Positions 13,053 through 27,443 are shown, counted from the stretch's first letter. The stretch is 64,000 nucleotides of DNA from Candidatus Limnocylindria bacterium (GCA_035513775.1 DATKBR010000099.1:1879-65878), one strand, 5' to 3'. Translations and numbers: made by a program. The notes: a model not told the origin generated them from the letters alone.

Positions 13053-13058
13053 GGGCGC

Positions 13059-13532
13059 CTACTCCCTCCACTCCAGGATGGCGTCGACCTCTACGGACAT
13101 CCCGAACGGCAGGTCAGGGACCCCTACCGACGTCCGGCTGGCGATGGTGGCCGGGCCGTACAGGTCGCGCAGCAGATCCGAGAACCCGTTGAGGACGCGC
13201 GGCTGCTCCGTAAACCCCTCGACAGCGTTCACGTAGCCCGTGACCCGGAGCCACTGGACGACGTCGTCGAGCGAGCCGAGCTCACGTTCGATGGTGCCGA
13301 GCACGTTGAGGGCGGTCAGTTGCGCTGCGGCGATGCCGTCGTCGACCGTGAGGTCCCGCCCGATCTTGCCGAGATACAGCCACTCGTCACCGAACGTCGG
13401 GCCGTGACCGGCGACGTAGACGGTCCGGCCGCTCTTGGCCAAGCGACGGTACGTCAGCGTGACTCCGGGCGGGATCACCTGGCCCGGCGGGATCACCAGG
13501 CCCCGCGAAGCGAGCTTCTCGCGGATTGTCAT
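13059..13532 (-). CDS. RidA/YjgF/TdcF-family protein
   Basis: The start is chosen at the ATG at 13532 (MTIREKLASRGLV), preceded by GGAG. The C-terminal block ASRTSVGVPDLPFGMSVEVDAILE is typical of the family. The longer ORF start at 13580 would bury an operator-like palindrome. Confidence 0.75.
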   Translation of the reverse strand: MTIREKLASRGLVIPPGQVIPPGVTLTYRRLAKSGRTVYVAGHGPTFGDEWLYLGKIGRDLTVDDGIAAAQLTALNVLGTIERELGSLDDVVQWLRVTGYVNAVEGFTEQPRVLNGFSDLLRDLYGPATIASRTSVGVPDLPFGMSVEVDAILEWRE

Positions 13533-13542: not shown

Positions 13543-13555
13543 TTGGTCTGACCAA
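13543..13555. promoter_or_regulatory. putative GntR/FadR-type operator TTGGTCTGACCAA
   Basis: Perfect 5-3-5 inverted repeat (TTGGT-CTG-ACCAA) lying 11 nt upstream of the RidA start codon. It is a member of the recurring GGY-N3-ACC motif. Confidence 0.55.
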
Positions 13556-13606
13556 TTCGGTTGCTTCGCGGGGTCGCCACCCTCGCCTCGATGACCGCGC
13601 GTGATG

Positions 13607-13635
13607 ATCATAGCTAGCTGATAGATCACCAACAA
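13607..13635 (-). promoter_or_regulatory. candidate sigma-70-type promoter for the RidA-FAH-PLP operon (-35 TTGTTG, 17 nt, -10 TATGAT)
   Basis: Read on the minus strand, TTGTTG (13635-13630) is followed by a 17-nt spacer and TATGAT (12-7 of 136xx: 13612-13607). The site is in the AT-richest part of the divergent intergenic region. Confidence 0.4.
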
Positions 13636-13653
13636 CCCTTGAGATGGCTATTC

Positions 13654-13666
13654 TTGGTCGAACCAA
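13654..13666. promoter_or_regulatory. putative GntR/FadR-type operator TTGGTCGAACCAA
   Basis: 5-3-5 inverted repeat lying 48 nt upstream of the SDR start. It abuts a TATTCT -10-like hexamer at 13649-13654. Confidence 0.55.
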
Positions 13667-13713
13667 CCCGCACAACCGGGCTGCCACCCCGGGCCGAGAC
13701 GACAGGAGCCCAG

Positions 13714-14502
13714 ATGGACCCGAACCACTCCTTTGATGGGCGTGTCGCCCTCGTAGTCGGCGCGGCCGGAGGGATCGGCCGGGCGACGGCACGGGCGTTC
13801 GCTGGCGCGGGAGCTGTCGTGGCCATGGCAGATCTCGACGCCGACTCCACCCGTGCCGCCGCGGAGGGGTTCCCGCCCGGCACGCGTTCATTCCACGCGG
13901 TGGACCTGGCGCAGCCGGGCGGTCCGGCAGCCCTGGTCCGCGAAGTCGTGGAGGCCCACGGCAAGCTGCACGTGGTCGTCGGGGCGGCCGGCTTTCTTCG
14001 CGTGGCCTCGCTGCGCGACCTCGAGGTCGAGGACTGGGACCGCACCCTGGCGGTGAACCTCAGGGGCAACGTCCTCCTCGCCCAGGCGGCGGCGACGGTG
14101 TTCCTCGAGCAGGGCATCCAGGGACGGATCGTCGTGATCGCGTCCATCGTCTCGCGCCTGGCGCGCCTCAACAACGTCGCGTACGCCGCGTCCAAGGCGG
14201 GCCTGGTGCAGGCGGTCAGGTGCATGGCACTGGAGCTGGCGCCGCACGGGATCACGGTCAACGCGGTGTCGCCCGGTTCCACTGCTACGCCGATGCTCCT
14301 CGAGGTGCAGATGCGCGGTTCGAACGAGGCCCTGCGACAGGCCATCGAGGGCGACCTCGCGACGTGGCGGCTGGGCGTGCCCCTGGGCCACCTTGCCGAT
14401 CCGGCGGACCAAGCCGCAGCCATCCTGTTCCTGGCCTCGGACGCCGCCCGACACGTCACCGGGCAGGAACTCTTCGTGGACGGCGGCCAGACCGTCGTCT
14501 GA
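13714..14502 (+). CDS. SDR-family oxidoreductase
   Basis: The ATG at 13714 is preceded by AGGAGC. The product begins MDPNHSFDGRVALVVGAAGGIGRATA (TGxxxGIG motif). The catalytic YAASK and the C-terminal VTGQELFVDGG are present. Confidence 0.85.
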   Translation: MDPNHSFDGRVALVVGAAGGIGRATARAFAGAGAVVAMADLDADSTRAAAEGFPPGTRSFHAVDLAQPGGPAALVREVVEAHGKLHVVVGAAGFLRVASLRDLEVEDWDRTLAVNLRGNVLLAQAAATVFLEQGIQGRIVVIASIVSRLARLNNVAYAASKAGLVQAVRCMALELAPHGITVNAVSPGSTATPMLLEVQMRGSNEALRQAIEGDLATWRLGVPLGHLADPADQAAAILFLASDAARHVTGQELFVDGGQTVV

Positions 14503-14536
14503 TCGGGTCAGACGGTCTCGGGGCTTTCGTCCATCG

Positions 14537-15865
14537 CTAGAAGAAGGTGGGGACCAGGCCTCGGACCCGTCGGGCGTCATCGACCGCGAGCATGACCCGC
14601 CAGCGCTCGAACGCCTCACAGGGGTGCGAGATTCCACATCCGATGAGATCGCCGGGCGCCGGATCGATGCGGCCGCCGAGGTCCAGGTAGGCATGTTGGT
14701 CGTCCATCCGTCGGACACGGATGGCGGGCTCGATCGGCTCGACTTCGTGGCCGCGCCGGAGGTGCCACCGGGCCAAGGGCGTGTCGATGCGCGCCGGCGC
14801 GTCGCGGTGGCCGAAACCCACTACCGCGAGCTCACGCTCCGGCCGGGAGATAACGACTCCCCAGAGCTCGAGCGCTGCCTGCAGCCGGCCGTACTGCGGG
14901 AGCCGACCGCTGGTGGCCGACATCGGGGATGACCGCAGGTAGAGGCCGTCGTCGTGCGTCACGTAGCCACCCGGCCGGAGGACCAGTTGGTAGTCGGGCA
15001 AGGCCGACCTGCCAAGCATGGCCACCACGCGGTCGAAGTAGACGCTGCCTCCGGCACTCACCAGCGGCTTCGCGACGGCAAGGTCGGGCAGGATCCGGCG
15101 TGCGACCTCGGCGAGCGAATCAAGGTACGCGTCCGCGGCCAGCTCGCGGGCCTCCGCCGTGTCCCCGGGAGCAATCCCCTCATATCCCTCGATCCCGAGG
15201 AGTTCGACCCGGGGATGCGCCTCGCGAGCGGCGCGGATGACGCGGTCGATCGAGCCCGGGTCGCGAGCCCCGGCGCGGCCGCCCGGGAAGCCATGCTCGA
15301 CGAGCATGCCGACGGGGCGATCGAGCCCAGCCGCCGTTGCGGCATCCGCCCACGCTGCCACATTGACCGGATCATCTACCAGTACGATCAGCGAGAACGT
15401 GGGATCGGCGGACAGCTCGGCGACGAGCCTGCCGATCTCGCCGGGATGGGTGACCTCGTTCGCGATGAGGATCCGGCCGATGCCGAACGCGCGGCAGCTG
15501 AGTGCCTGCCGCGTGGTTGCGACCGTCACGGCCCACGCCCCAGCCCGCAGCTGCTCGGCAATGATGTGCGGGGCCATGGTCGTCTTGCAGTGCGGCGCCA
15601 GCCAGGCCCCCGCATCGTCGCAGAAGGACTGCATGGTCGCGATGTTTGCCAGGAGGGAGTCCCAGCGCACGACCATCTGAGGGAAGGTCACGCGGTCGTC
15701 GAACGCGGAGATCCCGGCTTCGGCGATGCCCGCCGGCGTCGCGGCGACGTCACGCGGCCCGCTGCGGAAGGAGGGATCGAGGGGCCGTGCCGCCCAGCTG
15801 CGCAGCGCTGCGTCGAGCGGCGCGAGTCCCGTCCCGGTGGCCGCTGCGTCGCCCGCGGCCGTCAC
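14537..15865 (-). CDS. DSD1-type PLP enzyme (alanine-racemase-fold N domain plus D-serine-dehydratase-like C domain)
   Basis: 442 aa. The GTG start overlaps the stop of the lipoyl-domain gene (GTGA at 15862-15865). It carries the PLP-lysine block LAPHCKTT and overall resembles the D-Ser dehydratase / D-Thr aldolase / D-3-hydroxyaspartate enzyme family. Confidence 0.75.
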   Translation of the reverse strand: MTAAGDAAATGTGLAPLDAALRSWAARPLDPSFRSGPRDVAATPAGIAEAGISAFDDRVTFPQMVVRWDSLLANIATMQSFCDDAGAWLAPHCKTTMAPHIIAEQLRAGAWAVTVATTRQALSCRAFGIGRILIANEVTHPGEIGRLVAELSADPTFSLIVLVDDPVNVAAWADAATAAGLDRPVGMLVEHGFPGGRAGARDPGSIDRVIRAAREAHPRVELLGIEGYEGIAPGDTAEARELAADAYLDSLAEVARRILPDLAVAKPLVSAGGSVYFDRVVAMLGRSALPDYQLVLRPGGYVTHDDGLYLRSSPMSATSGRLPQYGRLQAALELWGVVISRPERELAVVGFGHRDAPARIDTPLARWHLRRGHEVEPIEPAIRVRRMDDQHAYLDLGGRIDPAPGDLIGCGISHPCEAFERWRVMLAVDDARRVRGLVPTFF

Positions 15866-16107
15866 GCGGGATCGGTGTCGTCGATGTAGCCGAGTACGAT
15901 CTCGACGGGGACGGGATCGTTGCTGGCGGCCACGAGGATCTCGAGCCGTCCGTCCGCAGGAGCCTCGATCTCGGCGTTGGCCTTGTCGGTCTCCACGACG
16001 AGCAAAGGGTCGCCCTTGGCGACGCGCTCTCCGCTATGCCGCAGCCACTCCACGACCGTCGCCGACTCCATCAGGCCCAGTTGCGGGATGACGATCTCGG
16101 TCCTCAT
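15862..16107 (-). CDS. free-standing lipoyl-attachment domain protein (81 aa)
   Basis: MRTEIVIPQLGLMESATVVEWLRHSGERVAKGDPLLVVETDKANAEIEAPADGRLEIL carries the ETDKA lipoyl-lysine motif. The ATG lies in an ATGA overlap with the RidA stop (16104-16107). No E2 catalytic domain follows. Confidence 0.8.
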   Translation of the reverse strand: MRTEIVIPQLGLMESATVVEWLRHSGERVAKGDPLLVVETDKANAEIEAPADGRLEILVAASNDPVPVEIVLGYIDDTDPA

Positions 16108-16541
16108 TCCGCCGCGCCTTTCGGCAGTGGCGCGTAGGCAATGCATTCGATCTCCACCAGGTAGATGCCGTAGATCTTCCCGCCGACGGACGTCCGGGCG
16201 GGCGGCTCGGTCGGGAAGTACTCCTGGTAGACCCGGTTGTAGGCAAGGAAGTCACGATCGACGTCGCGGAGGAACGTATTGACCTTCACGACGTCCGCGA
16301 GCGTGGCGCCGGCCGCCGCGAGCGCCCCCTTGATGCTCTCGAGTGCTTGGCGCGTTTCCGCCTCGATGCCGCCCGGGATCAGCTCGCCGGGCAGCCACGT
16401 CGTGCCCTCCCCGCTTGGCGGGCGGTTCGGCAACAGGCCGGCGTGCCCGGACACGAAGACGAGGTCACCAGCCCGCACCGCGGGTGAGAGGAACGGATGA
16501 TCCGGGGGTCCGTCCGGAACCTTGATCACGACCTTGCTCAT
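16104..16541 (-). CDS. RidA/YjgF-family protein
   Basis: 145 aa with FVSGHAGL..., VVKVNTFLRDV and PARTSVGG...VEIECIAY blocks typical of RidA. Confidence 0.85.
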   Translation of the reverse strand: MSKVVIKVPDGPPDHPFLSPAVRAGDLVFVSGHAGLLPNRPPSGEGTTWLPGELIPGGIEAETRQALESIKGALAAAGATLADVVKVNTFLRDVDRDFLAYNRVYQEYFPTEPPARTSVGGKIYGIYLVEIECIAYAPLPKGAAE

Positions 16542-16582
16542 CGCCTGCTACTCCTCGCTTGTCCGTGCCAGCGTTGCGCCTG

Positions 16583-17281
16583 TCAGATGTGCCCGTGGTG
16601 GTCGAAGCTCTCCGACGGCGTGGCGCCCTCGCGGATCTCCGCCCGGACCTTGCCTTCGGCGACGACGATGCTCTCGGCCCGCTCCAGAACGGCCTCGGCC
16701 TGCGCGCGAGGCACGATCAACACCCCCTCGAACTCGGCGATGACGATGTCGCCGGGGTGTACGACCACATCGCCGATGGTCACCGGGACCTGCTCCGCGA
16801 CCATCTCCCAGCGGCCGATCCCGTTGCGCGAGCAGAGGTCGCGAAAGACGATCGGCAGGCCGATCTCGCGCAGGCCCGCGACGTCGCGCAAGTTGCCGTC
16901 AAGGATCACGCCGACACAGCCGCGGCCCTGGGCCGCATTGCCGGTCAGCTCGCCGAAGTGTCCGACGAAGCCCTCCGGGGTCGTCGAGACGAGCACCGAA
17001 TCGGGCTCGAGTTGCTCGAAGACGCGGAGGTACGAACGCATCCGCCCAACGCCCTCGTCCCAACCGACAGCCGGAACGATCTCCTTACCGACGACCGTGT
17101 ATGCGACTCCCACGAATGCCTGCTCTGGAAAAAGTGGCCGCAGGTTCGACGGGAGGAGCGGCTCGGGCAGCCCCAGCTCGAAGAGAGCGTCGCACACCGC
17201 GGGCATGTAAAGGGCGCGGAACCGGCGGCAGATCTCGGCGATCGTCAACGGAGTCTCCATCAGCGGGCGGGCCGACGCCAT
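16583..17281 (-). CDS. RraA-like protein (HMG/CHA aldolase / oxaloacetate decarboxylase family)
   Basis: The ATG at 17281 is chosen (MASARPLMETPLTIAEICRRF). The motif GELTGNAAQGRGCVGVILDGNLRDVAGLREIGLPIVFR is present. The ORF-track TTG at 17308 would overlap an operator-like site. Confidence 0.8.
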   Translation of the reverse strand: MASARPLMETPLTIAEICRRFRALYMPAVCDALFELGLPEPLLPSNLRPLFPEQAFVGVAYTVVGKEIVPAVGWDEGVGRMRSYLRVFEQLEPDSVLVSTTPEGFVGHFGELTGNAAQGRGCVGVILDGNLRDVAGLREIGLPIVFRDLCSRNGIGRWEMVAEQVPVTIGDVVVHPGDIVIAEFEGVLIVPRAQAEAVLERAESIVVAEGKVRAEIREGATPSESFDHHGHI

Positions 17282-17291
17282 TGTATCGAAG

Positions 17292-17304
17292 GCGGTAGGA
17301 CCAA
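17292..17304. promoter_or_regulatory. putative GntR-type operator GCGGTAGGACCAA
   Basis: GGT-AGG-ACC core lying 11 nt upstream of the RraA-like ATG. It sits inside an 18-bp block identical to 18959-18976. Confidence 0.5.
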
Positions 17305-17369
17305 TCAATACACTGGCGATGCTGTTTCGCGCGTCAATTCATCACGCCTTGGGCGGGAGATGAGACGCA

Positions 17370-17382
17370 ATGGCCGGACCAT
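17370..17382. promoter_or_regulatory. putative GntR-type operator ATGGCCGGACCAT within the 7-5-7 inverted repeat GCAATGG-CCGGA-CCATTGC
   Basis: Read directly at 17367-17385. The 22-bp block 17367-17388 is identical to 19036-19057. Confidence 0.5.
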
Positions 17383-17520
17383 TGCGATCATCAGCCAACG
17401 GCGCTGGGACACGTGGCGGGCTCGGGATCCCGGCGTGATTGCCAGCCTTGACGACCGGTCGAGTCGTCGCGATCCCCCGGCTGGGGATACGCGCGTCCGC
17501 CAACAGCACCTCCGCGGTGA

Positions 17521-18807
17521 TCAGAACGTGACCGGCAGCGTCTCGAGAATGCGGACCGTCGGCTTTGCGATCGCCCATCGAGGATGCTCGTCGGCAAGCC
17601 GGATGCCTGGCATACGCCTGATCAGGGCCTTGAAGAAGACGTGGGCCTCCAACCGGGCCAGCGGCGCGCCGATGCAGAAGCTGATGCCATATCCGAATGC
17701 CAGGTTCTGCAAGCGCGGCCGCTCGATGTCGAAGACGTCAGGATCCTCGAACCGGACGGGATCGCGATTCGCTGCGTTGAGCATCTGGATGACCATCTCT
17801 CCCTTGCGCAGCGGTTTGCCCCCGAGCTGGGTGTCCTGCTTCACCAGTCTCGTGTTCCGGGCGAGCGGGCTCTCAAAGCGGAGCATCTCCTCGATAGCCG
17901 CGGGGATGAGCGTCGGGGTCTCGCACAGAAGCCGCCACTGGTCGGGATGCTGGAGCAGGCACAGGAGACCGCTGCTGACAAGCGACGCGGTGGTCTCGTG
18001 GCCAGCCAGCAGCAGCGTTCCTAGATTGTTCACCAGCTCGGTTTCGCTGAGTGCGCCACTCGTCTCCTGCGCCACGACCATCCGGGTGAGCAGGCCGTCC
18101 TGTGCGTTCGCACCCAACCGGATCCGCTCCTTCTGTGCGGCCAGGTAGTCATGGATCTCGAGAATCGCGTCCTGCGCCGCCAGCAGAGACTCGTATGTTG
18201 GCTGCCGCCTGGTCTGGAACGCGAGCAGGCGATCTGCAAGACGGCGGAACATCCGGCGGTCGGACTGGGGGACCCCGAGGAGCAGGCAGAGGACGGCAAT
18301 CGGAAGGTCGAAGGCGACCGCCTCCATGACGTCCATCTGTCCATCGTCCACAACCCTGTCGAGCAGAGCCTCGACCGTCTGCTCGATGCGCGGACGGAGA
18401 GCCTCCACCTGCCCAGGCGTGAACCCCCACTTCAGAAAGAGCCGGCGCAGGCGCGTGTGATCGGGAGGGTCGGCGTGCACGAGGCTGCCGCTGCCGTAGA
18501 AGCAGGCAAAGGCATCCAGTTGCCGTTGTTCAGCCGGGGCGAGGTGATCCAGCGCCTTGAGCATGCGACCCTGCCTGGTGAAGTGCTCGAGGTCGAGGGT
18601 GGAGCCCAGGACGTCGTCGTACCGAGTGAGGAGCCAGGCTCCGATTGCATCGCTCCAGTGGACCGGGTCATCGTCGCGGAGCCGACGGAGAGCGGGGTAT
18701 GGATCAGCGAGGAACTCCGGGGACACGAGGACCTCGTCGAAGTCCGTTGAGTCAACTGGCAGAGTCAGCGACGTCCTCCTTCTAGTCGCAACCGGTTCCG
18801 GTGCCAA
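17521..18807 (-). CDS. cytochrome P450
   Basis: 428 aa with the heme-thiolate loop FGYGISFCIGAPLARLE, the ExxR motif (EEMLRFESP) and the I-helix LLLAGHETTA. The start is uncertain. The ORF track uses TTG at 18807, but a perfect AGGAGG (18780-18775) sits 6 nt before an in-frame CTG at 18768. Confidence 0.88.
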   Translation of the reverse strand: MAPEPVATRRRTSLTLPVDSTDFDEVLVSPEFLADPYPALRRLRDDDPVHWSDAIGAWLLTRYDDVLGSTLDLEHFTRQGRMLKALDHLAPAEQRQLDAFACFYGSGSLVHADPPDHTRLRRLFLKWGFTPGQVEALRPRIEQTVEALLDRVVDDGQMDVMEAVAFDLPIAVLCLLLGVPQSDRRMFRRLADRLLAFQTRRQPTYESLLAAQDAILEIHDYLAAQKERIRLGANAQDGLLTRMVVAQETSGALSETELVNNLGTLLLAGHETTASLVSSGLLCLLQHPDQWRLLCETPTLIPAAIEEMLRFESPLARNTRLVKQDTQLGGKPLRKGEMVIQMLNAANRDPVRFEDPDVFDIERPRLQNLAFGYGISFCIGAPLARLEAHVFFKALIRRMPGIRLADEHPRWAIAKPTVRILETLPVTF

Positions 18808-18959
18808 TTTCCCGATCTACGTCTCTCGTCGTCGAGCCACGACAAGAGGGGAGATCAATCGAGATGGACGCGGCAGTCTGGACGGCGGCAGTGGTGGACG
18901 TTGCGCCAATCCCGCAGCGGTGACTCCGCAGACGTCGGATCGACGTTGGTGCTTCTCTG

Positions 18960-18972
18960 GCGGTAGGACCAA
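18960..18972. promoter_or_regulatory. putative GntR-type operator GCGGTAGGACCAA (second copy)
   Basis: Identical to 17292-17304 and located in the P450/SDR divergent intergenic region. Confidence 0.5.
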
Positions 18973-19038
18973 TCAAGACGCCAATGACAAAGAGCTCGAG
19001 CGATTGAACCATCATAAACAAGTCCCGTAGTGGCTGCA

Positions 19039-19051
19039 ATGGCCGGACCAT
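19039..19051. promoter_or_regulatory. putative GntR-type operator ATGGCCGGACCAT (second copy)
   Basis: Identical to 17370-17382. It ends 5 nt upstream of a TTGACA -35 hexamer. Confidence 0.55.
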
Positions 19052-19056
19052 TGCGA

Positions 19057-19086
19057 TTGACACCGAGCTGGTCGTGACCCTATCGT
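19057..19086 (+). promoter_or_regulatory. candidate promoter of the SDR-E1alpha-E1beta-GntR operon (-35 TTGACA, 18 nt, -10 TATCGT), probably giving a leaderless mRNA
   Basis: TTGACA lies at 19057-19062 and TATCGT at 19081-19086. The GTG start at 19094 is only 7 nt after the -10 and has no SD. Confidence 0.45.
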
Positions 19087-19093
19087 CCGGGGC

Positions 19094-19873
19094 GTGGACG
19101 AAGGATTCCCGCCGCGCGGTGCCGAACGGTTCTCGCTCGTGGGACGGGTCGCCGTCGTGACCGGTGCGGGCAGCGGCCTCGGCCAGGCTGTAGCCATTGG
19201 GTTCGCCCAGGTTGGGGCCCGGATCGTGGTCGCGGACCTGCCCGGCGCGGACTTTGGCCCGGTCCAGGCGGCGTCTCCCGATCCTGTCATGGCGATTGAC
19301 GTGGACGTTTCCGACCGGGACGCCGTGGACCGGATGGCTGCCACTGTCCTCGCCGAACTGGGCCGCGCGGACGTCCTGGTCAACAGCGCCGGAATCGGCG
19401 GACGCTCCCCGGCCGAGACCTACCCGGCGGACCTCCTCGCGAAGATCCTGGCCGTGAACCTCGTAGGCACGCTGAGTTGCTGCCAAGCTTTCGGCCGGAT
19501 CATGCTCGCGGCGGGCCGCGGCTCGATCATCAACTTCGCCTCGGTCGGGGGACTGGTGGGCTACCCGGGCAGTGTCGGGTATCAGGCCAGCAAGGGCGCG
19601 ATCGTCCAGGTCACACGCTCCCTGGCCATCGAGTGGGCAACGCGCGGCGTCCGCGTCAACGCGATCGCGCCCTGTCAGTTCGAGACCCCTGTCGTGCGGC
19701 GGCAGTGGGAGCGCGAGCCGGAGATGAAGCAGTACTGGTTGTCCCGCACGCCGATCGGGCGCCTCGGTCATCCGGAGGAGATCATCGGCCCGGCGATCTT
19801 TCTCGCCTCGGATGCATCGGCCATGGTGACGGGGCACACCCTGCCGGTCGATGGAGGATTCGTCGCCCAGTGA
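19094..19873 (+). CDS. SDR-family oxidoreductase
   Basis: 259 aa with VAVVTGAGSGLGQAVA, the catalytic YQASK and VTGHTLPVDGG. Confidence 0.85.
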   Translation: MDEGFPPRGAERFSLVGRVAVVTGAGSGLGQAVAIGFAQVGARIVVADLPGADFGPVQAASPDPVMAIDVDVSDRDAVDRMAATVLAELGRADVLVNSAGIGGRSPAETYPADLLAKILAVNLVGTLSCCQAFGRIMLAAGRGSIINFASVGGLVGYPGSVGYQASKGAIVQVTRSLAIEWATRGVRVNAIAPCQFETPVVRRQWEREPEMKQYWLSRTPIGRLGHPEEIIGPAIFLASDASAMVTGHTLPVDGGFVAQ

Positions 19874-20868
19874 CCCGCAAGGCCGTTGCGGACCATCCGC
19901 TCGAGTCCGCGGACCTCCGGCGCCTCTATGAGACGATGGTCAAGATCCGCATCTTCGAGGAGCGGGTCCAGGAGCTGTTTCTGGCGCGGAAGCTGCCGGG
20001 GTTCGTCCACGTCTATCTGGGCGAGGAGGCCGTGGCCACGGGCGTCTGCGACGCGCTTCAGCCGGGCGACTACATCACCTCGACCCATCGCGGGCATGGG
20101 CACGCCGTGGCCAAAGGGGTGCGCCTGGATCCGCTGATGGCCGAGCTGTACGGCAAGGAGACCGGAGTCTGCCGCGGTCGCGGCGGATCGATGCACGTCG
20201 CGGACTTCAGCCTCGGGATGCTGGGCGCCAACGGAATTGTGGGGGGCGGTTTCGGGATCGCGGCAGGGGCCGCGCTCACCTCAAAGCTGCTTGACCTGGG
20301 GCGAGTGGCAGTGTGCTTCTTCGGGGACGGCGGGATCAACAAGGGGACGTTCCACGAGGCGCTGAACTTCGCATCGGTGCAGCAGCTCCCCGTCGTCTAC
20401 GTGTGCGAGAACAACCAGTTCGCCCAGTTCACGGCCCGCGAGCGCACGACGTCCGTCGAGGACCTGTCAGTGCGCGCAGCGGGCTACGGCATTCCGGGCC
20501 ACACGGTCGACGGCAACGACATCGAGGCCGTTCGCGGAGTGGCGGGTGATGCGATCGACAGGGCGCGCCGGGGCGAGGGTCCGAGCCTCCTTGTCATGGA
20601 GACCTATCGCTACGGCGGTCACTTCGTCGGCGACATGGAGGAGTACCGCGACAAGGCCGCCGTCGAGCAGCAGCGCGACCGCGACCCGATCCGGCGGGCC
20701 GAGACCATCCTGCTCGCGCGTGGCGTGGACGAGGCTGAACTCGCGAAGGTCCGGGAGGCGGCCCGGGTAGAGGTCGAGCTCTCGGTGGAGTTCGCCGAGC
20801 AGAGCCCCTACCCGGACGCGTCGACCGCGCTCGACGGCCTGTTCGCCACACCGGTGGTGCAGTCGTGA
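19870..20868 (+). CDS. TPP-dependent 2-oxoacid/acetoin dehydrogenase E1 component, alpha subunit
   Basis: The GTG at 19870 overlaps the SDR stop (GTGA). The TPP motif FFGDGGINKGTFHEALNFASVQQLPVVYVCENNQFA is present. The upstream part of the 463-aa ORF is shadow. Confidence 0.9.
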   Translation: MTRKAVADHPLESADLRRLYETMVKIRIFEERVQELFLARKLPGFVHVYLGEEAVATGVCDALQPGDYITSTHRGHGHAVAKGVRLDPLMAELYGKETGVCRGRGGSMHVADFSLGMLGANGIVGGGFGIAAGAALTSKLLDLGRVAVCFFGDGGINKGTFHEALNFASVQQLPVVYVCENNQFAQFTARERTTSVEDLSVRAAGYGIPGHTVDGNDIEAVRGVAGDAIDRARRGEGPSLLVMETYRYGGHFVGDMEEYRDKAAVEQQRDRDPIRRAETILLARGVDEAELAKVREAARVEVELSVEFAEQSPYPDASTALDGLFATPVVQS

Positions 20869-21923
20869 CGGCGATGGGGCCCGATGGGCCAGAGCGGGCG
20901 GTCGATCGCCAGATGACCTTCGGCCAGGCGACGGTCGAGGCGCTCAGCATCGCGATGCGTGCTGACGAACGCGTGATCGTCCTGGGCGAGGATATTGGCT
21001 GGGGCGGCAACTTCGGCCAGTTCCGTGGCCTGCTCAAGGAGTTCGGGCCGAGGCGGGTGATCGACATGCCCATCTCTGAGTCGATCATCATGGCGGTGTC
21101 CGTCGGCGCGGCATCGACCGGCATGCGCCCGGTCGCCTCGATGAGCTTCGTCGAATTCACGATGGGAGCGATGGATGAGATCGTGAATCAGGCTGCGAAG
21201 TTCCGGTTCATGTTCGGTGGCCAGACATCGGTGCCGCTCGTGCTCCGTGCGTCAGACGGCGTGCTCCGGTCCTCGGCCGCGCAGCACTCCGAGAGCTTCG
21301 AGGCAATCTTCGCCCATATCCCGGGGCTCAAGGTCGTCGCGCCCGCGACGGCTGCTGACGCAAAAGGACTCCTGGCGACCGCGATCGCCGACGACGACCC
21401 GGTCGTCTACCTCGAGAACAAGCGGATCGGCTCGAGCCGCGGCGAGGTGCCCGACGGCGAATATTTCGTCCCGCTTGGCCGGGCTCGTATCGCCCGGGAG
21501 GGCCGCGACGTGACAGTGGTCTGCTACTCGGTCATGGTCACCTATGCGCTCGACGCAGCGAAGGTCCTCGCCGAGCAGGATGGCATCGACGTGGAGATCG
21601 TCGATCTGCGCACGCTCGTGCCGCTCGATATGGCGACCGTCGATGCCTCGGTGGCCAAGACCGGACACGCGGTGATCGCCCACGAGGCCTGGCGATTCGG
21701 CGGCTTCGGGGCGGAGCTGGCAGCCCAGATCTCCGAGCGCCACTTCGGCCGGCTCGGCGCGCCCGTGGCACGGGTCGGCGCGAAGCACTCGCACATGCCG
21801 TTCAGTCCGCCCCTGGAGCGCGCCGTCGCGCCGCAGGCCGAGGAGATCACCCACGCCGTGCGGACGACGCTCGCTCACCGCGCCCGCGCTGTGGCCACCG
21901 GCCGGGACGCTGGACGGACATGA
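20865..21923 (+). CDS. 2-oxoacid/acetoin dehydrogenase E1 component, beta subunit (transketolase-like)
   Basis: 352 aa with VIVLGEDIG...RVIDMPISESIIMAVSVGAA and the C-terminal transketolase domain. A GTGA overlap joins it to E1 alpha. Confidence 0.9.
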   Translation: MTAMGPDGPERAVDRQMTFGQATVEALSIAMRADERVIVLGEDIGWGGNFGQFRGLLKEFGPRRVIDMPISESIIMAVSVGAASTGMRPVASMSFVEFTMGAMDEIVNQAAKFRFMFGGQTSVPLVLRASDGVLRSSAAQHSESFEAIFAHIPGLKVVAPATAADAKGLLATAIADDDPVVYLENKRIGSSRGEVPDGEYFVPLGRARIAREGRDVTVVCYSVMVTYALDAAKVLAEQDGIDVEIVDLRTLVPLDMATVDASVAKTGHAVIAHEAWRFGGFGAELAAQISERHFGRLGAPVARVGAKHSHMPFSPPLERAVAPQAEEITHAVRTTLAHRARAVATGRDAGRT

Positions 21924-22672
21924 ACCGCCAGCTGGCCGCCGAACGTCCGGACGACTTGCCCGCCGCGGGTCAGGACGGGGCCGATGGGTCCGGGAACCTT
22001 CGAACGATGTCGCTGGCGGAGGGCGCCGCTGTCAAGATCGCTCAGGAGATCACCTCGGGAGCGATCCGGCCCGGCCAGCGGCTCCCAGCCGAGCGAGAGC
22101 TCGCCCAGCGCTTCGGCCTCAGCCGTGGCGCGTTGCGGGAGGGCCTGAGGACCCTGGAATCGGTCGGACTCGTCACGGCCAGGGTAGGGCAGGGGCGGTT
22201 CGTCGCCGATACGGGCTCTGATCGTCCGTCCATGGCCCTGACCGCCCTGATGCAGGTTCAGCCGAGCGGCGACATCGTGGCGCTCCGCTCGCTCCTCGAG
22301 CCGGCGCTGGTCCGGGAGATGCCGGCGGCCCAGATGGCTCCGACCGCGGCGGCAGCAGCCGAGCTCCTGGTCAGGATGCGGCGCGCCCAGGCCGCCGGCG
22401 CGATCAACCAGGCCGTCCGCGACCACACGGAGTTCCACCGTCTTCTGATTCGTTTCGGCGCGACGCGTCTGTCGCGGACGCTCCTGTCGAGTCTCATCGA
22501 AGCGGCCGCGGTATGGCAGCCGGCCATCCTCCGCGACCGCGACGCCGCCCGGACCTGGGTGGAGGAACACCGGGAGATCGTGACCGCCCTCGAGACTGGG
22601 GATATCGATCGTGCCGCGGAGCAGGTGTTGGCGCATCTCCGGCCGGCGTTCACCTACCGAAGCGCTGACTGA
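21920..22672 (+). CDS. GntR-family transcriptional regulator (FadR/FCD subfamily)
   Basis: The wHTH is LPAERELAQRFGLSRGALREGLRTLESVGLVTARVGQGRFV. The helical FCD-type C-terminal domain has conserved His residues (EFHRLL, EHREIV, LAHL). An ATGA overlap joins it to E1 beta. Confidence 0.9.
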   Translation: MNRQLAAERPDDLPAAGQDGADGSGNLRTMSLAEGAAVKIAQEITSGAIRPGQRLPAERELAQRFGLSRGALREGLRTLESVGLVTARVGQGRFVADTGSDRPSMALTALMQVQPSGDIVALRSLLEPALVREMPAAQMAPTAAAAAELLVRMRRAQAAGAINQAVRDHTEFHRLLIRFGATRLSRTLLSSLIEAAAVWQPAILRDRDAARTWVEEHREIVTALETGDIDRAAEQVLAHLRPAFTYRSAD

Positions 22673-22692
22673 CCTGATCGGGTCGCAATAAC

Positions 22693-23913
22693 GTGTCGAT
22701 CGACCGACGCGCGTTCATCCGATCCCTGAGCGGTCAGGCGGTCCGATCCATCGGCGCGGCACTGGCGTTGACCGGACAGGTGCGCCAGGACATCGCGCAA
22801 GAGCTGCGCCAGGAGGACCCGGTCGCCGCGCAGTCCACCGAGGCGCGGCCGACGCACGCGGATGATCGCTCCGCGGACTGGCAGTCGGCGGAGATCCATC
22901 CCGGTCCGACGGAAGGCGTGGCACTCGGCGCGTGGGCTGACGTGCCCGCCGTGCCGAGCGTCCTGACCGAGGCGGGCACAATCGAGGCCCTGGACCAGCG
23001 ACGACTGCCGCATGACGTCCAGTGGGTGACCCTTGCGTCGGCCGGCGAGGTCGTGCAGGCGATCAGGGACGGCGTCATCGACGGCGGTGCGGCGATGGTC
23101 GGGGTCGCCGTCCAGACCGTCGCCATGGTGGCCACCCGGGCCGCCGATGCCCCCGCCACGTCCCGTGGGGCGGTCATCTCGGGCGCGGCGCGGGCGCTTT
23201 CCGCGGCCCGGCCCGATACCCCGCTGGTCCGCGAGGCCCTGGCCGCGTTCATCCCCGACCTGCACGCCATCGAGATCCCGACGCTCGATGAGCTCCGGTC
23301 GGCCGCGGCGTCGCGCGCCGCGAGCGTCCAGGCCGAGCATCGGGCTCTGGCCAGCGTGGGAGCCGCCTGGTTGCTGGAGCGCTTCCGGCCGGACGCCAAC
23401 GTCGTATTGGCTGGGGAGTTCGGACCCGCCGCCGCGGCCTCCATCGGGACGACCTCGGCCGTGCTCCGAGGGGCCGCCGAAGCCGGACTGCACCTCCGTG
23501 TCCACGTACTGGACGGCGAGCCGCCGGCCACGAGCGTCGCGCTGCTGCTGGCTGCAGTCGGAGTTGCCCCGATCGAAATCCGATCCGTCCCGGACGTTCG
23601 CCTGGAGCAGCTGTTGGCCGAGTCCGACGTCAACGTCGTCCTTCTGGGGGCCAGTTGGGTGAGCGCGGACGGAACCCTGGCGGGCCGCCTCGGATCCGTC
23701 GCGGCCGCGCTACTGGCACGGCGACGAGGGATCCCGGTCGTCGGTCTCGCCTCCCGGTCGATGGTCGTCCACGGCGCTGCCGGCCAGGCGGCTGCTGCGA
23801 CGTCACGGTCGCACGGAGGCGTTCCGCTGGAGCTCGTGGACGGCTCGCTCGTGGACCTGATCCTCACCGACGTCGGCGCGGTCAGCCCTGAATCCATGGG
23901 CAGACTCCGATGA
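22693..23913 (+). CDS. eIF-2B alpha/beta/delta / MtnA-like family protein (divergent)
   Basis: 406 aa. IEALDQRRLPHDVQWV matches the LDQxxLPxE entry motif of MTR-1-P isomerase-like proteins. Later blocks (VLLGASWVSADGTLAGRLGSVAAALLARRRGIPVV) align to GADRIAxNGDxANKIGT but with substitutions. The N-terminus (MSIDRRAFIRSL) resembles a twin-arginine motif. Confidence 0.6.
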   Translation: MSIDRRAFIRSLSGQAVRSIGAALALTGQVRQDIAQELRQEDPVAAQSTEARPTHADDRSADWQSAEIHPGPTEGVALGAWADVPAVPSVLTEAGTIEALDQRRLPHDVQWVTLASAGEVVQAIRDGVIDGGAAMVGVAVQTVAMVATRAADAPATSRGAVISGAARALSAARPDTPLVREALAAFIPDLHAIEIPTLDELRSAAASRAASVQAEHRALASVGAAWLLERFRPDANVVLAGEFGPAAAASIGTTSAVLRGAAEAGLHLRVHVLDGEPPATSVALLLAAVGVAPIEIRSVPDVRLEQLLAESDVNVVLLGASWVSADGTLAGRLGSVAAALLARRRGIPVVGLASRSMVVHGAAGQAAAATSRSHGGVPLELVDGSLVDLILTDVGAVSPESMGRLR

Positions 23914-23944
23914 TCGGGCGCGCCACGGGGGGTCGGCCCTGAGC

Positions 23945-25531
23945 ATGGCGGGTGCCGTCGACGTCGTGATACGGCACGGCTCCATCATCGACGGTCTGGG
24001 CGCCCCCGCCGTCCGAGGGGATATCGCGATCGACGGCGACCGGATCGTGGCCGTCGGGCCCGGCCTCAGTGCCGACGCGCGCGAGGTCGTGGACGCAGAC
24101 GGACTCGCGGTGGCTCCGGGCTTCATCGACCTCCACGCGCACGCGGACCTGGGACTGCTTGCCGATGGGCGCTGGCAATCCTCGCTGGACCAGGGCGTGA
24201 CGACCCTGGTCATCGGCCAGGACGGGCTGGGTTTGGCCCCGCTCAACGATCGCGCGGTGGCAATCCGGCGCGAGCTGCGGGGCATCAACGGCGATCCGGA
24301 CGTTGTGTCCTGGACGTGGCGCACGTTCGCCGAGTACCTGGCCCGGATGGAGGGCCGGATCGGGCCGAACGTCGCGGCCATGGTCCCCCACGGGACGATC
24401 CGGCTCGTGGTGATGGGCGAGGACGATCGACCGCCAACCGAGTCCGAGCTCGTCGAGATGCAGGCGCTCGTCATGCGCTCAATGCAACAGGGGGCATTCG
24501 GGCTGTCGGCGGGGCTGACCTACGCGCCCGCCACATTCGCGGACGACGAGGAGCTGGTTGCCCTCTGCCGCGAGATTGCCCCGTTCGGCGGCTTCTACCA
24601 GCCGCACCATCGGAACTACGGCGAGTGGGCAATCCGCGAGTTCGCCGCGTCGATCGAGATCGGCCGACGCGCTGGTGTCCCCGTCCACCTGACGCACGCT
24701 CACCTCAGCTTCCCGGTCAACGCCGGACGTGCGCACGAGCTGCTGTCGCTCGTGGACGAGGCGCGCGCGGCCGGCCACGACGTCACGCTCGACTCCTACC
24801 CGTACCTCGCCGGAGCGACGTACCTGGGAGCGTTCCTCCCGTCATGGGCGCAGGTCGGCGGCCCCGACGGCGTCGTCGCCCGCCTCGGCGATCCGGCTGC
24901 CCGCGCGCGGATTGCGGGCGAGATGGTCCGGGGTTGCGACGGCCTCCAGGGGATCCCGGTCGACTGGTCCCTGATCACCGTAGCCGGGGTCGACTCCCCG
25001 GCGATGTCCGCCGTCGTCGGGAAGTCGATCGACGAGCTCGCGGCGGCGTGGGGTACATCGGCCTTCGACGCCTTCTGCCGGCTCCTCGTCGACGACCGCA
25101 TGGGCACGATGGCGCTGCTCACGGTCGGGCACGAGGACAACGTGCGCGCCATCATGGCGCACCCCATGCATATGCCGGCCAGCGACGGGATCGTCATCGG
25201 CCAGCGTCCACATCCGCGTGCCTGGGGCACATTCGCCCGGTTCCTCGGGGTCTACGTCCGTGAGCTCGGGCTCGTGCCGCTCGAGGAGATGGTCAGGAAG
25301 ATGACCTCGGCGCCCGCTCGGCGCCTCGGCCTCGTGGATCGCGGCGTCCTGCAACGCGGCATGGCTGCCGACATCGTCGTCTTCGATCCGCGGACGATCA
25401 TCGACCGCGCGACCTACGCCGAGCCGAAGCGCCCCCCCGAAGGCGTCGACGCCGTCCTCGTCAACGGGGCCTTCGTGCGTCGCGACGGCCGCTCGCTCGA
25501 CCCTCGATCCGGTCGTGTCCTTCGACGGTGA
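23945..25531 (+). CDS. N-acyl-D-amino-acid deacylase (D-aminoacylase) family amidohydrolase
   Basis: 528 aa. VVIRHGSIIDGLGAP...IAIDGDRIVAVG...APGFIDLHAHAD...QGVTTLVIGQDG is colinear with characterised D-aminoacylases. Confidence 0.85.
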   Translation: MAGAVDVVIRHGSIIDGLGAPAVRGDIAIDGDRIVAVGPGLSADAREVVDADGLAVAPGFIDLHAHADLGLLADGRWQSSLDQGVTTLVIGQDGLGLAPLNDRAVAIRRELRGINGDPDVVSWTWRTFAEYLARMEGRIGPNVAAMVPHGTIRLVVMGEDDRPPTESELVEMQALVMRSMQQGAFGLSAGLTYAPATFADDEELVALCREIAPFGGFYQPHHRNYGEWAIREFAASIEIGRRAGVPVHLTHAHLSFPVNAGRAHELLSLVDEARAAGHDVTLDSYPYLAGATYLGAFLPSWAQVGGPDGVVARLGDPAARARIAGEMVRGCDGLQGIPVDWSLITVAGVDSPAMSAVVGKSIDELAAAWGTSAFDAFCRLLVDDRMGTMALLTVGHEDNVRAIMAHPMHMPASDGIVIGQRPHPRAWGTFARFLGVYVRELGLVPLEEMVRKMTSAPARRLGLVDRGVLQRGMAADIVVFDPRTIIDRATYAEPKRPPEGVDAVLVNGAFVRRDGRSLDPRSGRVLRR

Positions 25532-25541
25532 CCGAACAAGA

Positions 25542-25554
25542 TTGGTCGGACCGA
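25542..25554. promoter_or_regulatory. putative GntR-type operator TTGGTCGGACCGA (within extended palindrome AACAAGATTGGTCGGACCGATTTGTT)
   Basis: Read directly from the sequence. It ends 4 nt before a TTGACT -35 hexamer upstream of the ABC importer genes. Confidence 0.55.
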
Positions 25555-25558
25555 TTTG

Positions 25559-25587
25559 TTGACTTGCCGGAGCGAATCTGCTATTCC
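25559..25587 (+). promoter_or_regulatory. candidate promoter of the ABC importer operon (-35 TTGACT, 17 nt, TGc-TATTCC extended -10)
   Basis: The hexamers lie at 25559-25564 and 25582-25587. This would leave a 5' leader of roughly 130 nt before GTG 25722, which has the SD GGAGGAGGAG. Confidence 0.35.
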
Positions 25588-25721
25588 TCGCTTGGACGAG
25601 CGGGGACTCGAACCATGGTCGATCCCCAGTGGTCCAACCGTAGGCGGACGAGACAGGGTTCGAGCACCGGAGCCCGAGCGGACGGCCCGGCGGGCTCGCC
25701 TGTCAATGGAGGAGGAGTCGC

Positions 25722-27443
25722 GTGACCGAATATCGGCAGCTTGACGGGCTCGTCACCGAGTACCTCGAGCGACAGATTACCCGTCGGACATTCATGAAGA
25801 GGGCCGCCGCCATGGGGGTTGTGGCCTCGTCGGCCGCTGCGATCCTGGCCGCTTGCGGGACCGCGACGACGTCCTCGCCTGCCGCCTCGACCGATGCAAG
25901 CTCAGGCGCGGCAAGCGCGGCTCCGCCCGCCGGGCCGAAGACCGGCGGCACGTTCATCGAAGGCTACGATCGTGACTTCAGCCCCGTCACGACGGTCAAC
26001 GCAGCCTGGGTCGACCCCACGCACGAGGCGTTCCTCGAGCCCCTGGTCCGATCGGACCCGGCCGGGAAGCTCACGGCGGTTCTCGCCGAGTCGTGGACGT
26101 CGAACGCGGATGCGACCGAGTGGCGGCTCAAGCTCCGTCCCGGATTGAAGTTCAACTCCGGCGCCGACTGCGACGTGGCTGCAATGGTCGAGACCCTGAA
26201 GGTCGTGAGCGGGCCGAACGGCCAGCACCCCTACTGGTGGGCGCAGGTCACGGACATCTCGGCCGACGGTGACGAGATCGTCATCACCTGCAGCAAGCCG
26301 TACTTCAATCTCCTCGAGTCGGTCATCCGTCAGGAGTTCTCCAACGCCTACCTCGTGGCGACCGCTGTCAGTGCGGGCAGTGACTACGGCGTGACGGTGG
26401 TCGACGGGACTGGCCCGTTCACCTTCACCGAGTTCCAGCCCGGCAGCCATGTCAGCGGCACGCGCTGGGAAGGCTACGCGGGGCTCCCCGAGGGTGCCTG
26501 GTTCTCGAACAAGGGCAAGGCCTACCTCGACGGTGTCAAGTGGGTGCCCCTGCTCGAGGCGGCGAACCGAGCCAACGAGCTCATCTCGGGCAGCGTCCAC
26601 GCGATGAAGCGCCCGCTTCCCTCCGACCTCGATGCCCTCAAGGCGAACCCCGACATCGTCGTGATCGAATCCGAGGAGTCCGCCGGCCTCACCTTCGGCC
26701 TCAACTTCACGAAGACCGAGCTCGGCTTCGACGACCTCCGGGTGCGGCAGGCGATCTCGCAGGCGATCAACCGCCAGGCGATCGTCGACACGGTCCTCCT
26801 GGGACATGGCGCGGCCGCGTACGGTCCGTTTCCGACCAAGTACAAGTGGTACGAGAAGGGCGTCGAGGCGTTCAACAAGTACGATCCGGCGGCGGCATCC
26901 GCGCTTCTCGACGCGGCCGGCTGGGTGCCGGGCGCTGATGGAATCCGGGCCAAGTCCGGGAACCGCCTCTCGTTCTCGATCACGAACTTCACCGAGGCCG
27001 TGCGCAACCAGACCGGTGACGCGGTCGTCGCGATGCTCGCGGAGATCGGCGTCGAAGCCAAGATGAGCAATCTCGAGGGCGGCGCCTTCTTCGACATGTT
27101 GGGTAATCCGGACAATCAGGCCTTCTTCTTCAACTGGCTGTGGATGTCCCCGCCGAACCTTCTGCAGGTCATCACCGGCAGCCAGTTCCGACCCGCTCCG
27201 AACTGGGAGCAGGCCAACATTCCAGAGGTCGACGCGGCGATCGACAAGTGGCAGTTCGCGGCCAACGATGCCGACGCAGAGGCGGCCGCCAGGGAGATCC
27301 AGCTGGTCATCGCCGAGAAGCTGCCGACCCTGACGATCTGGATCCCGACCGTCGTCTGGGCGCATCACAAGAAGGTCCACGGCTGGCTGCCGACGGACAC
27401 GAACCTGTACCCGTACTACAACGACGTCTGGCTCGACTCCTAG
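25722..27443 (+). CDS. ABC transporter substrate-binding lipoprotein, family 5 (peptide/nickel type), Tat-type signal
   Basis: 573 aa. It has the twin-arginine motif ITRRTFMKRAAAMGVVASSAAAILAAC with the lipobox LAAC, and an SBP_bac_5-like body. Confidence 0.9.
   Translation: MTEYRQLDGLVTEYLERQITRRTFMKRAAAMGVVASSAAAILAACGTATTSSPAASTDASSGAASAAPPAGPKTGGTFIEGYDRDFSPVTTVNAAWVDPTHEAFLEPLVRSDPAGKLTAVLAESWTSNADATEWRLKLRPGLKFNSGADCDVAAMVETLKVVSGPNGQHPYWWAQVTDISADGDEIVITCSKPYFNLLESVIRQEFSNAYLVATAVSAGSDYGVTVVDGTGPFTFTEFQPGSHVSGTRWEGYAGLPEGAWFSNKGKAYLDGVKWVPLLEAANRANELISGSVHAMKRPLPSDLDALKANPDIVVIESEESAGLTFGLNFTKTELGFDDLRVRQAISQAINRQAIVDTVLLGHGAAAYGPFPTKYKWYEKGVEAFNKYDPAAASALLDAAGWVPGADGIRAKSGNRLSFSITNFTEAVRNQTGDAVVAMLAEIGVEAKMSNLEGGAFFDMLGNPDNQAFFFNWLWMSPPNLLQVITGSQFRPAPNWEQANIPEVDAAIDKWQFAANDADAEAAAREIQLVIAEKLPTLTIWIPTVVWAHHKKVHGWLPTDTNLYPYYNDVWLDS

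Follow-up and report, generated by a model that had tools for sequence, protein, structure and literature searches.

Regulators of the FadR subfamily of GntR proteins bind palindromic operators of the form TKGT-N3-ACMA, in which three nucleotides separate GT from AC, the HutC type having four (PMC4494728). Escherichia coli FadR, with its TGGT-N3-ACCA operators, acts in a position-dependent manner, which is a precedent for sites lying both within and upstream of promoters, and contacts DNA through Arg35, Arg45, Arg49 and Gly66 (PMC2602784). LldR of Corynebacterium glutamicum (CGL2915, with an operator at cgl2917-lldD) is a repressor whose sites overlap the promoter or the transcription start, and its high-affinity operator is TtgTGGTCTGACCAtgA (PMC2602784). 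PdhR is likewise a repressor, that of the pyruvate dehydrogenase complex, and the E1 enzyme associated with it belongs to the housekeeping aceE-aceF-lpd operon.

Here we describe a catabolic island within a 64-kb window (the whole stretch of DNA that was analysed), in which eight dyads would serve as operators of a FadR-subfamily GntR/FCD regulator encoded at 21920-22672, a reading to which we assign a probability of roughly 0.8. The dyads have the core and the GT-N3-AC spacing of FadR operators, and the 11-bp core of the LldR operator, TGGTCTGACCA, is identical to the core of the first of them, O1.

21920..22672, plus strand: GntR (wHTH) and FCD regulator gene, the presumed binder of the dyads

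The assignment of an FCD-type GntR to this position in the original prediction is borne out by Pfam, which finds in the 250-aa protein an N-terminal GntR wHTH (PF00392, 62 bits, E = 4e-17, residues 33-95) and a C-terminal FCD effector domain (PF07729, 57 bits, 3.4e-15, residues 118-241). In a BLASTP alignment with the FadR N-terminus, R35, R45, R49 and G66 of FadR correspond to R59, R69, R73 and G90 of the regulator; the numbering of the FadR query agrees with PMC2602784. The wHTH is almost invariant among homologues. Across 15 homologues D118, H217 and H239 are invariant and H169 and H173 nearly so, and we take these five residues to be the metal site of the FCD domain.

The closest solved structure is that of LldR (2DI3, E = 1e-12, residues 39-242), which shares with the window regulator the GntR wHTH and an all-helical FadR-type effector domain, followed by PdhR (5KVR, wHTH). 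The regulator is not an LldR orthologue, since it scores 60.1 bits against an NCBIfam equivalog cut-off of 311, nor, with 58.6 bits against 330, an orthologue of PdhR; the cut-offs for NanR (78.5 bits against 260) and GlcC (62.8 against 301) are not reached either. The FadR model gives 29 bits against a cut-off of 249, the effector domain of FadR is the acyl-CoA-binding FadR_C instead of FCD, and the window regulator has no link to fatty-acid genes. HypR of Streptomyces was considered as a known counterpart and rejected, its motif being different. On sequence grounds the regulator is a member of an uncharacterised FCD clade.

The genes around it form six units, the fourth of them probable.

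8647..13532, minus strand: unit 1, RidA/YjgF, FAH-family hydrolase, D-Cys desulfhydrase/CuyA-like PLP enzyme, unknown 408-aa protein, amidohydrolase
13714..14502, plus strand: unit 2, SDR1
14537..17260, minus strand: unit 3, RraA-like aldolase/decarboxylase (its start probably being ATG 17260), RidA, 81-aa lipoyl carrier, DSD1-type PLP enzyme
17521..18807, minus strand: unit 4 (probable), cytochrome P450 inserted into the ancestral divergent region between RraA and SDR2
19094..25531, plus strand: unit 5, SDR2, E1alpha, E1beta, GntR, IF-2B/MtnA-like protein, D-aminoacylase-like amidohydrolase
25722..32948, plus strand: unit 6, peptide-type ABC transporter operon, two family-5 solute-binding proteins followed by four ORFs

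The gene order of unit 1 is matched in the related loci L015 and L016. Unit 5 has intergenic gaps of at most 31 nt and 4-nt overlaps at three junctions, one of them between E1beta and the GntR gene, which is translationally coupled. Synteny with L013 suggests that the last four ORFs of unit 6 encode two permeases and two ATPases. Unlike the targets of LldR, these units are not lactate genes; they encode PLP enzymes, RidA, E1 subunits, a D-aminoacylase-like hydrolase and a peptide-type ABC transporter. As in PdhR systems, the GntR gene shares its transcript with E1-type dehydrogenase genes and is probably autoregulated, whereas the E1alpha/beta of the window is of the heterotetramer type, lies in a catabolic island and is accompanied by a free-standing lipoyl carrier.

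Seven of the eight sites had been predicted before, and all seven 13-mers are found, to the base, where they were placed, in DNA that is intergenic by gene calls and Pfam. The eighth, O8, is added here.

13543..13555: O1, predicted operator, TTGGTCTGACCAA, a perfect 6-N1-6 dyad; genome rank 1, 22.3 bits (independent matrix, see below)
13654..13666: O2, predicted operator, TTGGTCGAACCAA; rank 3, 19.0 bits
17280..17308, minus strand: promoter of the RraA-like operon, -35 TTGATT (17308-17303), 17-nt spacer, -10 TACAAT (17285-17280)
17292..17304: O3, predicted operator, top strand GCGGTAGGACCAA, minus strand TTGGTCCTACCGC, occupying the -35 and spacer of that promoter
17367..17385: O4, predicted operator, core 17370-17382 (ATGGCCGGACCAT), extended palindrome GCAATGGCCGGACCATTGC
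18960..18972: O5, predicted operator, GCGGTAGGACCAA, duplicate of the O3 block, located upstream of the P450 gene
19039..19086, plus strand: O6 (19039-19051, ATGGCCGGACCAT) and SDR2 operon promoter, -35 TTGACA (19057-19062), 18 nt, -10 TATCGT (19081-19086)
25542..25587, plus strand: O7 (25542-25554, TTGGTCGGACCGA; rank 4, 18.8 bits) and transporter operon promoter, -35 TTGACT (25559-25564), 17 nt, -10-like TATTCC (25582-25587)
25629..25641: O8, predicted operator, GTGGTCCAACCGT; 12.6 bits

The predicted sites overlap or abut core promoter elements. The minus-strand RidA-FAH-PALP-unknown-amidohydrolase operon starts at ATG 13532, 10 nt downstream of O1, and the ATG of SDR1 (13714) lies 47 nt downstream of O2. 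The sites at 17292 and 18960, present as described, are simultaneously the -35 box and spacer of a promoter. The promoter of the RraA-like operon was picked up by an independent consensus promoter scan, as was that of the SDR2 operon, which matches the consensus at 10 of 12 positions and precedes an apparently leaderless GTG start at 19094. The -10 of the transporter promoter is weak and falls below the criteria of the scan. From O6 to its -35 hexamer there are 5 nt and from O7 to its own 4 nt, just as had been noted, and the claim that the operon of the regulator gene is preceded by such sites is upheld by O6, which abuts its TTGACA-N18-TATCGT promoter. Transcription is predicted to start near 19093, 17273 and 25594, and O8 is found some 41 nt downstream of the last of these, the predicted start of the transporter operon.

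Where does the specificity of these sites reside? The loose core GGY-N3-ACC, as originally named, occurs at chance level in the window (106 matches, shuffled sequence giving 94.7 +/- 11) and is too degenerate; the signal is carried by the full dyad, wTTGGTC-N-GACCAAw, i.e. TGGT-N3-ACCA, which is rare and highly specific. In the 2.46-Mb genome TTGGTCNNACC or its complement has 12 matches (11 distinct positions), and six of these (five sites) fall within the 12 kb from 13543 to 25554. The spacing is that of FadR-subfamily operators: GT and AC stand 3 nt apart (T/GT...AC/A form) in six of the eight sites, while O4 and O6, unlike the other six, have GC in the left half (ATGGCC...). A 15-bp matrix trained solely on TGGT-N3-ACCA occurrences in loci of other organisms placed five of the originally predicted sites at ranks 1, 3, 4, 9 and 10 in the genome; of the 12 genomic matches that score 15 bits or more, five fall within roughly 1 kb of intergenic DNA in the island. 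Within the window, 11 bits or more are reached by the eight sites alone, all of them intergenic and distributed over four control regions (13533-13713, 17261-17520, 18727-19093 and 25532-25721). The look-alike that had been pointed out at 45634-45646 is present, scores -8.8 bits and is unrelated to the motif.

No regulator orthologue above 36% identity was found in 40 related genomes, and footprinting was therefore carried out on metagenome contigs. GntR/FCD homologues 48-78% identical to the window regulator are encoded in about ten metagenome or MAG loci (L013-L016, L018-L024). The automatic JGI name of these homologues is 'repressor for pyruvate dehydrogenase complex'. Dyads occupy matching positions relative to RidA, SDR1, RraA, SDR2 and the transporter, with unconserved flanks. 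A dyad stands at the positions of O1 and O2 in L015, L016 and L023, at that of O7 in L013, L019 and L021, and at that of O8, as GTGGTCCAACCG, in L013 and L019. At the O3 promoter TTGAttggtcctaccg...TACAAT/TACACT is conserved in L013, L015 and L019, and the arrangement of O6 and its promoter recurs in L013, L015, L019 and L020. A matrix trained on the window gives 1.65 matches per kb in intergenic DNA of the related loci against 0.12 per kb in coding DNA. Moreover, in an unbiased search of 2304 4-mer dyads over seven loci, TGGT-N3-ACCA was the most intergenic-enriched (p = 1.3e-8), followed by TTGG-N5-CCAA and GGTC-N1-GACC.

Two of the site pairs, 17292/18960 and 17370/19039, are evidently one two-operator cassette, duplicated upon insertion of the P450 gene, so that the seven listed sites hold five distinct sequences. 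The block 18959-18976 around O5 is identical to 17291-17308, its -10 not being retained; O4, on the RraA side of the insertion, duplicates the operator of the SDR2 promoter, and its adjoining -35 has decayed. Between the copies the operator blocks are identical in 40 of 40 bases, and the 58-59 nt separating the blocks show an identity of 0.525, not above that of shuffled sequence (0.516). The P450 gene is absent from L013, L014, L015, L019 and L020; as a conserved regulon member it was rejected, the P450 of the window and that of L018 sharing 39% identity. The insertion of the P450 gene resembles a natural experiment: selection would have kept all four cassette blocks, even though one copy lacks its -35 and the other its -10 and the DNA separating the blocks is randomised. 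We tentatively consider that the paired operators of each control region may work solely together, through cooperative binding or looping by two dimers, a proposal that we regard as doubtful. Centre-to-centre distances of the pairs (69-79, 110-123 and 87-89 bp) share no common helical phase.

We propose that a dimer of the regulator would bind each dyad through its wHTH, as FadR and LldR do, and that in its effector-free form it would repress six adjacent units of a D-amino-acid/peptide catabolic island. The coordination of at least four units, as originally suggested, is supported in silico, and the count rises to six. The operon of the GntR gene itself would be among the repressed units, giving negative autoregulation; this is plausible because the gene lies inside the SDR2 operon, whose promoter is abutted by O6. 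Judged by site positions, repression would be steric: the RraA-operon promoter has O3 between its -35 and its -10, O1 precedes the start codon of RidA by 10 nt, and O6 and O7 adjoin the -35 box of the SDR2 promoter and that of the transporter promoter, respectively, while O8, at about +41, could be a downstream roadblock or a looping partner. Binding of a small ligand, probably a carboxylate intermediate of the pathway, to the FCD domain would release the DNA.

The sign of control is where another reading deserves most attention, namely that the island GntR is a dual-function regulator activating at O6 and O7, like E. coli FadR at fabA. The two sites are centred near -49 and -46, FadR-type proteins can activate from just upstream of the -35, and the effect of FadR depends on position (PMC6608401). 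On the other hand, the 19-bp extended palindrome of O6 ends 3 nt before TTGACA, so that a bound dimer would crowd sigma region 4; O1 and O3 are placed as in classical repression, which also suits O8 with its location downstream of the transporter promoter, and both LldR and PdhR, the nearest relatives that have been characterised, act as repressors. We consider activation at these two sites unlikely. It is far less probable that the dyads are bound by another FadR-type regulator and that the island GntR recognises something else. The genome does encode five GntR-family genes, with at least one further complete FCD-like GntR (on contig C32) and a fragment (C23), either of which might bind a similar dyad, and TGGT-N3-ACCA is a generic core of the FadR subfamily. 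Nevertheless, dyad and GntR homologue travel together in ten loci of varied gene content, the dyads directly flank the GntR gene in L018, L022 and L024, no regulator gene other than that of GntR is shared by all of the eight loci for which genes were called, and the nearly invariant wHTH of the homologues matches the invariant core of the dyad.

That GC-rich DNA produced these palindromes by chance, or that they are remnants of local duplication without regulatory function, is a reading we hold to be effectively refuted. Although the GGY-N3-ACC core occurs at chance frequency and duplication accounts for two pairs among the seven listed sites, the full dyad is scarce in the genome as a whole and clusters in the island, and it keeps fixed promoter positions across loci with diverged flanks. 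The outcome of the unbiased dyad search, the genome ranks under the independent matrix and the preservation of the cassette blocks beside a randomised middle all speak against it. We retain the reading of the dyads as very probable operators of the island regulator, probably a repressor.

A genome-wide matrix scan, proposed earlier as a check for intergenic enrichment, confirmed the concentration of the full dyad in the intergenic DNA of the island and revealed no such enrichment outside it, where 22% of the matches that score 12 bits or more are intergenic and non-coding DNA makes up 19%. An extended regulon was rejected, the best outside matches adjoining unrelated genes (RNase J-like, sigma factor, ArsR-like regulator, PPDK). 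The ArsR-like regulator beside one such match has a longer palindrome of its own. The regulon is thus predicted to be local and to comprise six transcription units, and, given the absence of enrichment elsewhere and the unrelated neighbours outside, the case rests on one locus type.

The mechanism proposed is textbook FadR/LldR-type control, ordinary bacterial regulation of modest general interest. The predicted regulon delimits the genes that act together, which cover 8.6-33 kb of the window and exclude its second half at 33-47 kb. As the effector of the FCD domain should be a substrate or early intermediate of the pathway, it offers an experimental handle. An uncharacterised island of uncultured high-GC soil bacteria is hereby assigned a probable regulator, together with an operator consensus and a regulon of six units; among the products of the island are PLP beta-eliminases and two RidA proteins, an E1 pair accompanied by a free lipoyl carrier, a D-aminoacylase-like hydrolase and a peptide ABC transporter. 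If the operators do work solely in pairs, this feature and the effector would together mark out a new FCD-type repressor that strictly requires paired operators and controls an undescribed D-amino-acid/peptide catabolic route in these bacteria.

All seven 13-mers of the original prediction were found in the window with exactly the sequence and coordinates reported, and the -35-like hexamers following the sites at 19039 and 25542 are present where they had been placed. The recurrence of the sites is hereby confirmed. Genes were called with a codon-usage model fitted to this genome and checked against Pfam; by these calls every site is intergenic, as had been claimed, and they occupy four control regions:

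13533-13713, flanked by RidA (-) and SDR1 (+)
17261/17282-17520, flanked by the RraA-like gene and the end of the P450 gene
18727/18808-19093, flanked by P450 (-) and SDR2 (+), the first gene of its operon
25532-25721, between the D-aminoacylase-like amidohydrolase gene and the first solute-binding protein gene

The loose core GGY-N3-ACC shows no enrichment (106 occurrences versus 94.7 +/- 11 in shuffles); the signal is the longer dyad TTGGTC-N-GACCAA rather than the minimal core originally proposed. Across the 2.46-Mb assembly, TTGGTCNNACC or its complement matches 12 times, at 11 distinct positions; six of these matches (five sites) fall inside the 12-kb stretch carrying the sites. Since a matrix derived from the sites of the window itself ranks them at the top by construction, two independent tests were made, using metagenome contigs and MAG loci (L013-L016, L018-L024) that encode homologues of the window's GntR/FCD protein with 48-78% identity. 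In seven of these foreign loci, every dyad built as 4-mer, N0-8, reverse complement (2304 in total) was compared for intergenic versus coding excess. TGGT-N3-ACCA came out on top, with eight intergenic matches versus one coding match (p = 1.3e-8), followed by TTGG-N5-CCAA and GGTC-N1-GACC, both portions of that same motif.

A 15-bp operator matrix was then trained solely on exact TGGT-N3-ACCA occurrences in foreign loci, and the window's whole genome was scanned. The sites at 13543, 13654, 25542, 19039 and 17370 rank 1, 3, 4, 9 and 10 genome-wide, and five of the 12 genomic matches of at least 15 bits are located in some 1 kb of intergenic DNA belonging to the island. The 64-kb window holds only eight matches of at least 11 bits, all intergenic: the seven reported sites and a new one at 25629-25641. 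Conversely, a window-trained matrix finds 1.65 matches/kb in intergenic versus 0.12/kb in coding DNA of eight foreign loci, several of the "coding" matches being located at gene boundaries or within fragmented gene calls. Equal frequency in coding sequence, by which the original prediction was to be judged, holds only for the degenerate core and does not hold for the full motif.

Across loci, the dyads keep matching positions relative to matching genes, in surrounding DNA that is not conserved. Ahead of SDR2-E1alpha-E1beta-GntR in the window, L013, L015, L019 and L020, the operator (A/G)TGGC(C/T)NGACCAT is followed after 3-5 nt by TTGACA and, 17-18 nt further, by TATCGT/TATGGT; the window's promoter was recovered independently by a consensus scan (10/12 matches). 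Because the GTG start codon (19094) comes about 7 nt past the -10 box (region 19081-19096) with no Shine-Dalgarno sequence, and those four foreign loci show the same arrangement, this operon, which contains the regulator gene, apparently yields a leaderless transcript. At the transporter operon the operator precedes TTGAC(T/G) by 3-4 nt, TATTCC follows after 17 nt, and a second conserved dyad, GTGGTCCAACCG, is situated about 87 bp downstream of the operator, near +41. In both operons the site adjoins the -35 box on its upstream side.

The RraA-like operon (-) has the arrangement TTGAttggtcctaccg-N7-TACAAT (TACACT in L015), in which the -35 box merges with an operator half-site that also fills the spacer; this promoter (17308-17280) was also recovered by the consensus scan. 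ATG 17281 and TTG 17308 are unlikely starts, as 17280-17285 is the gene's own -10 box and ATG 17281 falls within it, so that the gene probably starts at ATG 17260 (METPLTIAEIC..., conserved in L013), with a leader of only about 13 nt. In the window, L015, L016 and L023, 6-11 nt separate the end of the RidA operon dyad from the start codon that follows. For SDR1 the distance is about 45 nt in the window, L015 and L016, the three loci with a clear codon, and in L023 a dyad likewise lies upstream. The positions at the RraA-like and RidA operons are classical repressor positions. L018 also has a perfect TTGGTCGGACCAA (22 bits) at 17722-17734, close to where an unannotated gene of 200 aa begins, roughly 7 kb away from its GntR orthologue; in that organism the regulon may include this gene as well.

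In L013, L014, L015, L019 and L020 the P450 is absent, and the RraA-like gene stands divergently right next to SDR2. A single two-operator region of 157-221 bp separates them in four of the five loci; in L019, where gene calls are fragmented, it is longer. In the window, the P450 gene (17521-18807, -) lies between them with a cassette copy on either side (17291-19057), an arrangement that identifies it, by locus comparison, as an insertion into the ancestral divergent region. The two copies agree at all 40 positions of blocks GGCGGTAGGACCAATCAA and GCAATGGCCGGACCATTGCGAT, and over the intervening 58-59 nt they resemble each other no better than shuffled sequence does (0.525 vs 0.516 +/- 0.045). 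The RraA-side copy has lost TTGACA beside the second block, the SDR2-side copy TACAAT beside the first. Blocks kept intact despite loss of adjoining promoter elements and a randomised middle indicate that the operators are maintained independently of the promoter, which is good evidence for a function and hints that each promoter needs both.

The sole GntR-family gene in the window, 21920-22672, encodes GntR and FCD domains, as predicted (Pfam). The gene has a 4-nt overlap with E1beta, which precedes it in the operon under the site-abutted SDR2 promoter; this arrangement most naturally suggests autoregulation. Among the eight foreign loci for which genes were called, no regulator other than this GntR occurs in every one. 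In L018, L022 and L024, where the neighbouring genes are different, it is the GntR gene that the dyads flank. Its winged helix-turn-helix is nearly invariant across 15 homologues, matching the invariant TGGT/ACCA core, and its R59, R69, R73 and G90 align with the FadR DNA-contact residues R35, R45, R49 and G66 (PMC2602784). Together, these features point to this protein as the binder of the dyads, with a probability of roughly 0.8.

The closest solved structure is LldR of C. glutamicum (2DI3, E = 1e-12), followed by PdhR. The best LldR operator, TtgTGGTCTGACCAtgA (PMC2602784), has an 11-bp core identical to that of O1, the operator at 13543-13555. The window dyads also share the 3-nt GT-to-AC distance typical of the FadR subfamily, versus 4 nt in the HutC subfamily (PMC4494728). 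Orthology to any named regulator was rejected, all NCBIfam equivalog scores being far under cut-offs.

Where at least four transcription units had been proposed, six were counted:

13532 down to about 8647 (-), RidA-FAH-PLP enzyme-unknown-amidohydrolase
13714-14502 (+), SDR1
17260 down to 14537 (-), RraA-like-RidA-lipoyl carrier-DSD1-type enzyme
17521-18807 (-), P450 gene (probable member)
19094-25531 (+), SDR2-E1alpha-E1beta-GntR-IF2B-like-amidohydrolase
ABC transporter operon

The operator matrix finds no site in the island's second half (33-47 kb), and the look-alike CCTGTACGACAGT at 45634-45646, noted earlier as a weaker resemblance, scores -8.8 bits and drops out. As a TGT-N3-ACA dyad it has a general GntR shape; the window has no second GntR gene. 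Genome-wide, the sites are concentrated in the island, with no intergenic enrichment elsewhere; the best matches outside the island have unrelated neighbour genes, and the regulon is therefore local. The match of rank 2 is part of a longer palindrome, ATTGGTACAACCATATGGTTGTA (C34:12280-12320 of the same assembly), adjoining the start of a 115-aa gene. We take its product, by eye, to be ArsR/SmtB-like, and the palindrome is probably that regulator's own operator.

Immediately after the DSD1-type gene, L013 (110-598) and L014 (13-501) carry a 162-aa gene with a 2-oxoacid dehydrogenase (E2) catalytic domain (PF00198), where the window has SDR1 and no E2-domain gene; this touches the island's puzzle of a lipoyl carrier without E2. 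The closest genome-derived GntR homologues come, by NCBI titles, from an "uncultured Chloroflexia bacterium" MAG (L023, 78% identity) and a Paraconexibacteraceae MAG (L024, 50%); among 40 genomes related to that of the window, not one has an orthologue. This pattern suggests a patchy distribution of the island, possibly through horizontal transfer.

Rarity, fixed promoter positions, co-occurrence with the regulator gene, domains and contact residues support in silico the interpretation as a GntR/FadR-type regulon. Control at every site would be by repression rather than activation, with a pathway metabolite releasing the regulator; the pathway may be D-amino-acid or peptide catabolism, judging by family matches almost all below curated equivalog cut-offs. 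The system is an uncharacterised, new example of the well-known local repressor-operator control of FadR/LldR type, and the assignment, though not surprising, is useful for annotation of the island.
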